DNA from: Escherichia coli
Lineage (GTDB): Bacteria > Pseudomonadota > Gammaproteobacteria > Enterobacterales > Enterobacteriaceae
Direction: 5' to 3' (one strand)
Length of the DNA stretch: 64,000 nt
Assembly (NCBI RefSeq): GCF_003018255.1
Contig: NZ_CP027440.1
The position numbers were made by a program, and so were the translations under genes. A model generated the notes under the pieces. The model saw only the letters and a program-made list of their open reading frames with translations, did no database searches and was not told the origin of the DNA. This document shows positions 15,008 through 24,683 of the stretch, piece by piece (position 1 is the first letter of the stretch; every line of letters begins with the position of its first letter).

Positions 15008-16366
15008 TTAGCCTCCGTTGCGTTTTTGCAGTAATTCCTGATGGCGACGTTTTTCGCCAATCATCACAACAATCAACAAGATAACCGCGAGAATGCTGCC
15101 GCCAATCATTACCATAAAGCCGCCATCCCAGCCGAAGAAGTCCACGGTGTAGCCAACAATCGCGCTCGCCGCCACCGAACCGCCCAGGTAACCAAACAGC
15201 CCGGTAAAGCCCGCTGCCGTACCTGCCGCTTTTTTCGGTGCCAGTTCCAGCGCATGCAGACCGATCAACATCACAGGACCGTAAATCAGGAAGCCGATAA
15301 CAATCATACAGATCATATCGACGTTCGGATTGCCCGCCGGGTTCATCCAGTAAACGATAGTCGCGATGGTCACCAGTGTCATAAAGAAGACGCCGGTGGC
15401 CCCACGGTTGCCACGGAAGACTTTATCCGACATCCAGCCGCACAGCAGGGTGCCCGGAATGCCCGCATACTCATAGAAGAAGTAGGCCCAGGAGGATTTA
15501 TCCAGCGCGAAGTGTTTCACCTCTTTCAGATAAGTCGGTGACCAGTCGAGGATGCCGTAACGCAGCAGATAAACGAACACGTTGGCGATAGCGATGTACC
15601 ACAGCAATTTGTTCGGCAGCACGTACTGCATGAAGATTTGCTTCGCAGTCAGCTCCTGTTCCGCTTTTTCGTTATAGTCGTCCGGATAATCATTTTTGTA
15701 CTCTTCGATCGGCGGCAGGCCACAAGATTGCGGGGTATCGCGCATCATCGCAAAGGCGAACAGTGCCACCAGAATGGCGCAGAAAGCGGGCATATAGAGC
15801 GCCGCGTGCCAGTCATTGAACCAGGCCATCCCCAGCAGGAACAGCAGCGGCGGAATACCACCACCGACGTTGTGCGCACAGTTCCACACTGACACAATGC
15901 CGCCACGTTCTTTCTGCGACCACCAGTGCACCATAGTACGACCACACGGCGGCCACCCCATCCCCTGGAACCAACCGCAGAGGAACAACAGTACAAACAT
16001 CACCGCAATGCTCGACGTCGCCCACGGCACAAAGCCCATAAACAACATCACTGCCGCCGCCAGAATCAAACCTGCGGGCAGGAAAACGCGCGGATTCGAG
16101 CGATCCGACACCGAGCCCATGATGAATTTCGAAAATCCATAAGCGATCGAGATCCCAGAAAGCGCGAAACCTAAATCACCGCGTGAGAATCCCTGCTCGA
16201 CCAGGTAAGGCATAGCAAGCGCAAAGTTCTTACGAACCAAATAGTAAGCAGCATAGCCAAAGAATATCCCCAGGAAAATTTGCCAGCGCAATCGACGATA
16301 AGTCGGATCGATCTCCGCGGCAGGTAAGCGCGCTTTGTGTGGCGCTGGTTTAAAAATACTCAACAT
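15008..16366 (-). CDS. glpT: glycerol-3-phosphate:phosphate antiporter (MFS)
   Basis: 452-aa ORF starting [31 protein letters not shown], multi-TM MFS. Confidence 0.95.
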
Positions 16367-16638
16367 TGATAGCCTCCGTGGCCCGTGGTCTTATTTATGA
16401 TTAACAGCCTGATTCAGTGGGAGAACCTGCCGTTTCTTGAGTTGCCGCGATGTTAAGAAAACATTCATAAATTAAATGTGAATTACCGCACACATTATTA
16501 AATACGATGGTTTAAATGTTCAGAATGACGCATGAAATCACGTTTCACTTTCGAATTGTGAGCGAATATGCGCGAAATCAAACAATTCATGTTTTTACTA
16601 TGGCTAAATGGTAAAAAACGAACTTCAGAGGGATAACA
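16367..16638. promoter_or_regulatory. divergent glpTQ / glpACB control region; CRP-like site TGTGAattaccGCACA at 16477-16492
   Basis: 272-bp divergent spacer; sequence match to the CRP consensus TGTGA-N6-TCACA; GlpR operators are expected here but I did not map them confidently. Confidence 0.45.
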
Positions 16639-20703
<4,065 letters not shown>

Positions 20704-24464: not shown

Positions 24465-24683
24465 ACTGGACTCCAGTCTTAGATACTGGAATCAGTCTCG
24501 TTGCTCAGGGGGAGTAAAATTGTGAAGCTCATCAAATCCCGCTCCTCGTCCAGCGGACTGGAGAAATTACGCACAAATTTGTGAATTAGCGCACGGATTT
24601 TTTCTTATTGAGTACAACAGGTTGGACAAATTTTGCCGGAGGGGGAATGTGCCGGTGCAGTAAACCGGCACAGAGTGGCGGAA

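Follow-up and report, generated by a model that had tools for sequence, protein, structure and literature searches.

The control region between the divergent glpTQ and glpACB operons of Escherichia coli, with what is almost certainly its principal cAMP-CRP site

The closest described system is the glpTQ-glpACB region of E. coli K-12 (Larson, Cantwell and van Loo-Bhattacharya 1992; Yang, Gerhardt and Larson 1997; RegulonDB), and the region described here shares with it the genes, the length of 272 bp, the three CRP sites and, where glpA transcription starts, the GlpR/FNR element. In the glpT-glpA region of E. coli, 21 sites for 5 factors have been counted (PMC4280137). According to Shimada 2011 (PMC3105977), it is not established what each of the CRP sites of the spacer does. 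The repression exerted by GlpR is relieved by glycerol 3-phosphate. GlpT is one of the two routes by which fosfomycin is taken up, and the control of the glpT promoter by CRP, GlpR and FNR therefore sets fosfomycin susceptibility (PMC4790336, PMC5352689).

The window, i.e. the whole 64-kb stretch of E. coli DNA that was analysed, contains glpQ beyond glpT, and glpB and glpC after glpA, so that glpT-glpQ and glpA-glpB-glpC lie head to head on opposite strands. GlpT, GlpQ, GlpA, GlpB and GlpC are each confirmed by NCBIfam equivalog models. A 401-bp query spanning 16367-16638 matches 5419 of the 5426 complete E. coli genomes, several of them at 100%, and RefSeq annotates glpT and glpA on either side of the matched spacer. 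The open reading frames, the NCBIfam models and the annotation of E. coli genomes thus agree with the earlier note, which had called this interval the divergent glpTQ/glpACB control region. It is very nearly certain that 16367-16638 is the control region shared by the two operons, and that the TGTGA-type motif pointed out in that note is the principal cAMP-CRP site. Everything that the note proposed is already documented for E. coli, and the present work is the re-identification of a well-studied region: protein binding and transcription starts are taken from the literature, and the gene identities, the motif, its strength, its conservation and the match to K-12 were found here. The genes and the main elements are the following.

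15008-16366, minus strand: glpT coding sequence, glycerol-3-phosphate:phosphate antiporter of 452 aa (open reading frame list; NCBIfam equivalog NF008433, 976 bits; RefSeq annotation)
16639-18267, plus strand: glpA coding sequence (open reading frame list; NCBIfam NF008313, 1107 bits; RefSeq annotation)
16367-16638: divergent control region, 272 bp, the exact interval between the glpT start and the glpA start, 38% G+C (52% in the window)
16372-16382, minus strand: putative glpT ribosome-binding block, GCCTCCGTGGC on the plus strand, i.e. GGAGG on the minus strand, 6 nt ahead of the start codon
16402-16414, minus strand: candidate IHF core AATCAGGCTGTTA (WATCARNNNNTTR, 9/9), at about +30 to +42 of the glpT transcript
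16443, minus strand: glpT transcription start, transferred from K-12 by the RegulonDB CRP offsets (-41.5, -91.5, -131.5) and alignment
16450-16455, minus strand: probable glpT -10 hexamer TAACAT (ATGTTA on the plus strand), from its place relative to the transferred start
16474-16495: CRP site 1, core 16477-16492, centre 16484.5; class II for glpT (-41.5) and upstream site for glpA (-90.5)
16524-16545: CRP site 2, AATGACGCATGAAATCACGTTT, RegulonDB entry; glpA -40.5 (class II position) and glpTQ -91.5
16564-16569, plus strand: probable glpA P1 -10 hexamer GAATAT, from its place relative to the transferred start at 16575
16575, plus strand: glpA P1 transcription start, transferred from K-12 by the RegulonDB offsets (-90.5, -40.5, -0.5) and alignment
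16627-16632, plus strand: putative glpA Shine-Dalgarno sequence AGAGGG, of which GAGG is conserved in a 32-species Enterobacteriaceae alignment

The transferred glpT and glpA P1 starts are 132 bp apart, and the position of the former agrees within 2 nt with the numbering of Kurabayashi 2017 (PMC5352689). A simple sigma-70 promoter scan recovered neither of these two documented promoters, as is expected for promoters that depend on activators. In the alignment of 32 Enterobacteriaceae spacers, the glpT -10 block GATGTTAAG is conserved in most species and the glpT ribosome-binding block is nearly invariant. Yang, Gerhardt and Larson are said to have described, in 1997, IHF sites downstream of the glpT start; the candidate IHF block 16402-16414 is not conserved between genera. 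A second candidate for an IHF core, ATCAAACAATTC, was rejected because its TTR part is not conserved.

The motif of the earlier note, TGTGAATTACCGCACA (TGTGAattaccGCACA), is found exactly where the note had placed it. It reads TGTGA-attacc-GCACA, which corresponds to 9 of the 10 core bases of TGTGA-N6-TCACA, within AAATGTGA...CACAcaT. Its strength was evaluated with a symmetric CRP weight matrix built from 183 distinct RegulonDB CRP cores (Shimada 2011 Table S4, PMC3105977); every glpTQ and glpACB site was omitted from the training set, which avoids circularity. The scan of the spacer returned an above-threshold match: site 1 scores 11.78 bits, compared to a median of 7.64 and an upper quartile of 10.37 for the training sites. 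The top match of the window, TGTGAAGCTCATCAAA (24521-24536, 12.57 bits), lies in the yfaX/yfaY spacer, where the SELEX-chip experiments of Shimada 2011 (PMC3105977) place a CRP site that differs by one base. The matrix is validated by the fact that this top match is another SELEX-chip CRP locus. The same yfaX/yfaY spacer also contains a second good CRP match, TGTGAATTAGCGCACG (24580-24595, 9.75 bits).

Site 1 is also the documented CRP site of the region, as judged from RegulonDB, SELEX-chip and DNase I data. The RegulonDB entry reproduced in Shimada 2011 (PMC3105977), AAATGTGAATTGCCGCACACAT, at -41.5 of glpTQ and -90.5 of glpABC, corresponds to window positions 16474-16495, and genomic SELEX-chip recovered TGTGCGGCAATTCACA in the glpTQ/glpABC spacer (same study, Tables S3 and S4). 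Kurabayashi 2017 (PMC5352689) showed that CRP-cAMP protects glpT from -30 to -52 against DNase I in EHEC, which overlaps the -35 box, and that glpT expression is below detection in crp and cyaA mutants.

Could a motif of this kind be a functionless chance match, in a spacer of which the G+C content is only 38% and where 12 other positions score at least 3 bits? The numbers speak against it. Site 1 ranks second among the approximately 64,000 positions of the window, 0.0023 sites as good are expected per 272-bp spacer (independent-base background, window composition), and only 1.45% of 2000 dinucleotide-preserving shuffles of the spacer reach 11.78 (P = 0.0145); because of this rank, this expectation and this P value, site 1 exceeds chance. 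Moreover, both half-sites are kept across genera. The alignment of the 32 Enterobacteriaceae spacers shows that TGTGAA...CGCACA is retained while the flanks diverge freely, and 26 of the 32 species have an aligned 16-mer that reaches 7.6 bits or more, with a median of 11.5; the 6 species that have no good site 1 form the Kosakonia/Phytobacter group, which has lost it. Considering also that SELEX and footprint results have been published for the K-12 and EHEC alleles, a chance match has next to no probability of being the right explanation. A different reading accepts that site 1 is functional and assigns it to glpA: from -90.5 it would act together with the -40.5 site, and its effect on glpT would be incidental. 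Indeed, -90.5 of glpA P1 is a spacing from which an upstream CRP dimer can act, and RegulonDB also lists site 1 as an activator site for glpABC. However, with its centre at -41.5 of glpT, site 1 occupies the canonical class II position, the footprint covers the glpT -35 box, and glpT expression is undetectable in the crp and cyaA mutants (PMC5352689); besides, the two roles are not mutually exclusive. This makes a site that serves glpA in place of glpT rather improbable.

The preferred reading is thus that site 1 is the principal CRP site and acts on glpT. A CRP dimer centred at 16484.5 would sit at -41.5 of glpT, over the -35 region, and contact RNA polymerase directly as a class II activator, so that the transcription of glpT would depend on CRP. 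The same single dimer would also lie at -90.5 of glpA P1, and the weaker site 2 (16524-16545) would place another at -40.5 of this promoter. Site 2 is weak in this strain, with 1.98 bits, whereas it scores 8.6-9.5 in Klebsiella, Raoultella and Buttiauxella; its right half, AAATCACG, is conserved in the 32 Enterobacteriaceae.

The spacer is 98% identical to that of K-12 MG1655 (314-bp alignment, i.e. the spacer and about 20 bp on each side). The ten base differences from MG1655 are at 16420, 16485 (A for G), 16505, 16509-16513 (GGTTT for TTACA), 16523 and 16558 (G for A), and none of them falls on a core base of a CRP or FNR site. The only one in CRP site 1 is at 16485, a base of the spacer between the half-sites; the matrix score is 11.78 with the A found here and 11.11 with the G of the K-12 allele, and judging from the sequence, the A probably leaves CRP binding intact. 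The G at 16558 weakens a GlpR-like half-site at -17 of glpA P1, from TATGAGCGAA in MG1655 to TGTGAGCGAA here. Over the 96-bp core 16470-16565, among the 5426 genomes, 19 have an identity of at least 99%, 1841 of 95-99% and 3017 of 90-95%. The representatives fetched from the 95-99% class have the haplotype of this strain and those fetched from the 90-95% class are K-12-like. There are therefore two common E. coli haplotypes, about 9% apart over 96 bp, found in roughly 1860 and 3000 genomes, respectively; they differ mainly between CRP sites 1 and 2, by GGTTT or TTACA at 16509-16513 and by linked changes. Both aligned strains of this strain's haplotype group (three were fetched) have A at 16558, which indicates that the G found here is a rare private change, in line with the 19 genomes of at least 99% identity.

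The conservation of the region was examined by a single scan of species-representative genomes with a degenerate pattern for the N-terminal FAD motif of GlpA, which gave 120 loci. The head-to-head arrangement of glpT and glpA is kept throughout Enterobacterales and in Pasteurellaceae. Besides the elements already mentioned, the 32 Enterobacteriaceae spacers share TTTCG at 16549-16553, CGAATATGCnCGAAATCAAACA at 16562-16584 and TGGCTAAATG at 16601-16610. A conserved near-palindromic block, TGTTACAGAAATATGACA, is found between CRP sites 1 and 2, aligned to 16493-16514, in most genera other than Escherichia (Citrobacter, Enterobacter, Klebsiella, Kosakonia and others, e.g., loci L011, L044 and L055), and Escherichia has diverged there. 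Pasteurellaceae loci (L004, L005, L034, L089, L123 and others) have divergent glpT and glpA genes separated by about 300 bp, and their spacers contain GTGAT-N4-ATCAC palindromes, of the CRP type, in place of the enterobacterial ATCAAACA element.

GlpR operators were expected in the region by the earlier note, which found them hard to assign. Zhao et al. reportedly gave, in 1994, the half-site consensus WATKYTCGWW. The window was scanned with the corresponding 20-bp palindrome, WATKYTCGWW-WWCGARMATW, which was first checked on K-12 glp promoters, where it matches 20/20 positions at glpD and 17/20 at glpFK. The matches at and near the spacer are listed below.

16085-16104 and 16118-16137: two GlpR-like matches, 15/20 each, 33 bp apart, in the first 300 bp of the glpT coding sequence
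16450-16469: weak candidate GlpR-like match, 13/20, which contains the inverted repeat ATGTT-N5-AACAT and overlaps the glpT -10; at chance level when taken alone
16515-16534: candidate GlpR-like match AATGTTCAGA/ATGACGCATG, 14/20; not significant in shuffles when taken alone
16567-16586: best GlpR operator match TATGCGCGAA/ATCAAACAAT, 17/20, spanning the glpA P1 start; joint top of the 64-kb window
16607-16626: candidate GlpR-like match AATGGTAAAA/AACGAACTTC, 15/20, in the glpA leader; at chance level when taken alone

Only the 17/20 match stands out in the spacer: a match as good is found in 2% of the spacer shuffles (P = 0.02), and the block 16567-16586 is strongly conserved. The other matches are reproduced by shuffles. 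The number of matches in the spacer does not exceed that of the shuffles at 13/20 or better (P = 0.15), and is borderline at 14/20 or better (P = 0.06). The expectation of the earlier note is thus borne out for one operator, which can be recognised from the consensus. The Reg-Seq authors likewise found the RegulonDB GlpR sites too degenerate to be called from the sequence. In the glpA leader, AAAACGAAC (16614-16622) is conserved within Enterobacteriaceae, and not in Yersinia or Serratia. The window contains 41 matches of at least 15/20, of which four fall in 16085-16626, an interval picked post hoc, compared to 0.35 expected; the pair at 16085-16137 may represent remote operators, such as have been described in glp operons. 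GlpR, a repressor of the DeoR family that responds to glycerol 3-phosphate, would bind several degenerate 20-bp operators, and the one that is clearest covers the start of glpA P1.

The DNA of this operator would also hold the FNR half-site ATCAA, which would mediate an anaerobic boost. Two documented elements overlap here.

16568-16581: FNR site ATGCGcgaaATCAA, 7/10 to TTGAT-N4-ATCAA; published D154A-FNR footprint and motif
16564-16585: third 'CRP site' of RegulonDB, GAATATGCGCGAAATCAAACAA, on the same DNA as the FNR site; glpABC -0.5 and glpTQ -131.5, 7.99 with the CRP matrix

The earlier note had expected an FNR site that could not be assigned by eye. The consensus scan points the other way, as no position of the spacer exceeds 7/10, ATGCGcgaaATCAA is only one of the 7/10 matches, and 94% of the shuffles are as good; it is the experimental footprint which carries the assignment. 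Kurabayashi 2017 (PMC5352689) described a footprint of D154A-FNR that extends over 70 bp and lies upstream of the CRP site, with a motif TTGAT-TTCG-CGCAT that is the opposite strand of ATGCGcgaaATCAA, and read the site as an upstream enhancer of glpT. Myers 2013 found an FNR ChIP-chip peak at glpT/glpA solely in a strain that lacks hns and stpA, which suggests that the occupancy by FNR in vivo is weak or conditional. Ravcheev 2007, which compares ten genomes and gives no site sequences, assigns a strong FNR site candidate to glpABC in the majority of these genomes.

The position of the FNR site was compared in 62 Enterobacterales loci anchored on ATCAAACA. It matches the consensus at 9/10 in 21 loci, 8/10 in 19 and 7/10 in 22, so that 40 of the 62 reach 8-9/10. 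Yersinia, Serratia, Hafnia, Brenneria, Buttiauxella and Cedecea have TTGTT or TTGCT as the left half-site. On the right, all loci have ATCAA, as the set was selected on that anchor, whereas the GlpR consensus prefers ATCGA. Zhao and co-workers are also said to have found, in 1994, that the A/G position which distinguishes ATCAA from ATCGA is critical for the binding of GlpR. Because of the better FNR match in other genera and of the ATCAA in place of ATCGA, the third CRP site of RegulonDB resembles a GlpR operator and an FNR site in one; as an element of the FNR type, it is better conserved in other Enterobacterales. The centre of the FNR site is at -0.5 of glpA P1 and at -131.5 of glpT, and the class II spacing of -41.5 is found with neither of these documented starts.

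A conserved block in the glpA leader bears on this point.

16599-16609, plus strand: near-invariant block, TATGGCTAAAT in E. coli and TGTGGCTAAAT in most genera; candidate extended -10 of an FNR-dependent promoter, P2

Six bases of this block (T, T, G, A, A and T at 16599, 16601, 16602, 16607, 16608 and 16609) are 95-98% conserved among 59 distinct Enterobacterales sequences, in all of which the distance between the TGTGGCTAAAT block and the FNR/GlpR element is constant and free of gaps; the block lies 27 nt downstream of the FNR centre. On sequence grounds, the FNR site 16568-16581 and this block may tentatively be seen as a conserved, FNR-dependent second glpA promoter with a start near 16616. 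FNR would then control glpA from -41.5 of this start, TGgCTAAAT (16601-16609) would serve as its extended -10, and the two CRP sites would be at -81.5 (site 2) and -131.5 (site 1), in a co-dependence similar to that of ansB. This promoter, if it exists, would explain how FNR activates glpACB despite a site that overlaps the known start: from -0.5 of P1, FNR cannot activate that promoter, although glpABC is counted among the FNR-activated operons. The half-site ATCAAACA is found in all of the 59 sequences, although these were selected for this anchor, present in 62 loci; compared to the GlpR consensus, the half-site differs at the position which is said to be critical for GlpR binding, and the 21 loci with a 9/10 match have TTGTT or TTGCT as the left half. 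In terms of P2, T(-15) and G(-14) and then A(-9), A(-8) and T(-7) are each 95-98% conserved, and the A at +1 (16616) is 88% conserved. The distance from the block to the FNR site is preserved in Yersinia and Serratia, and that from the block to the glpA start codon is not.

Against such a promoter, positions -12 and -11 are C and T (92-95% conserved) instead of the canonical T and A, and the missing A at -11 is a serious defect for a sigma-70 -10 element. Another protein could instead bind the block, which could also belong to a GlpR operator or form an arm of an inverted repeat or hairpin, CCACA-N7-TGTGG (16587-16591 with 16599-16603); for the latter, 75% of the cells are paired, compared to 73% in shuffles, and there is one covarying pair. 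The FNR site is moreover taken by Kurabayashi 2017 (PMC5352689) as an upstream enhancer of glpT, and no description of a glpA start near 16616, or of a class II start for FNR, was found in the searchable literature. On balance, a second glpA promoter seems possible rather than probable. In uropathogenic CFT073, an NsrR ChIP-seq summit is reported at a position that corresponds to about 16598, 41 nt ahead of the start codon of glpA, and glpA is down-regulated under nitric oxide stress (PMC5320621). The sequence TGGCTAAAT was considered as the -24 element of a sigma-54 promoter and rejected, as there is no GC 12 nt downstream.

Scott, Busby and Beacham reportedly showed, in 1995, that ansB is co-activated by FNR at -41.5 and by CRP bound further upstream. 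If the second glpA promoter is real, it is like promoters of the ansB type in that FNR is at -41.5, CRP is upstream, and the gene is induced by anaerobiosis and cAMP. It would differ from them in the position of CRP (-81.5, not -91.5), in a putative -10 that is not canonical, and in a start that is a predicted one.

The glpD and glpFK operators for GlpR fit the same consensus (20/20 and 17/20) as the 17/20 match at 16567-16586, whereas the remaining operators of the glpT-glpA spacer are too degenerate to be called from the sequence. The class II promoters galP1, melR, mglB and caiT are similar to glpT in having a 22-bp CRP site at -41.5 which replaces a functional -35, and an absolute need for CRP. 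In contrast to these promoters, the glp region has one CRP dimer that is common to two divergent promoters, and packs extra CRP, GlpR, IHF and FNR sites into 132 bp.
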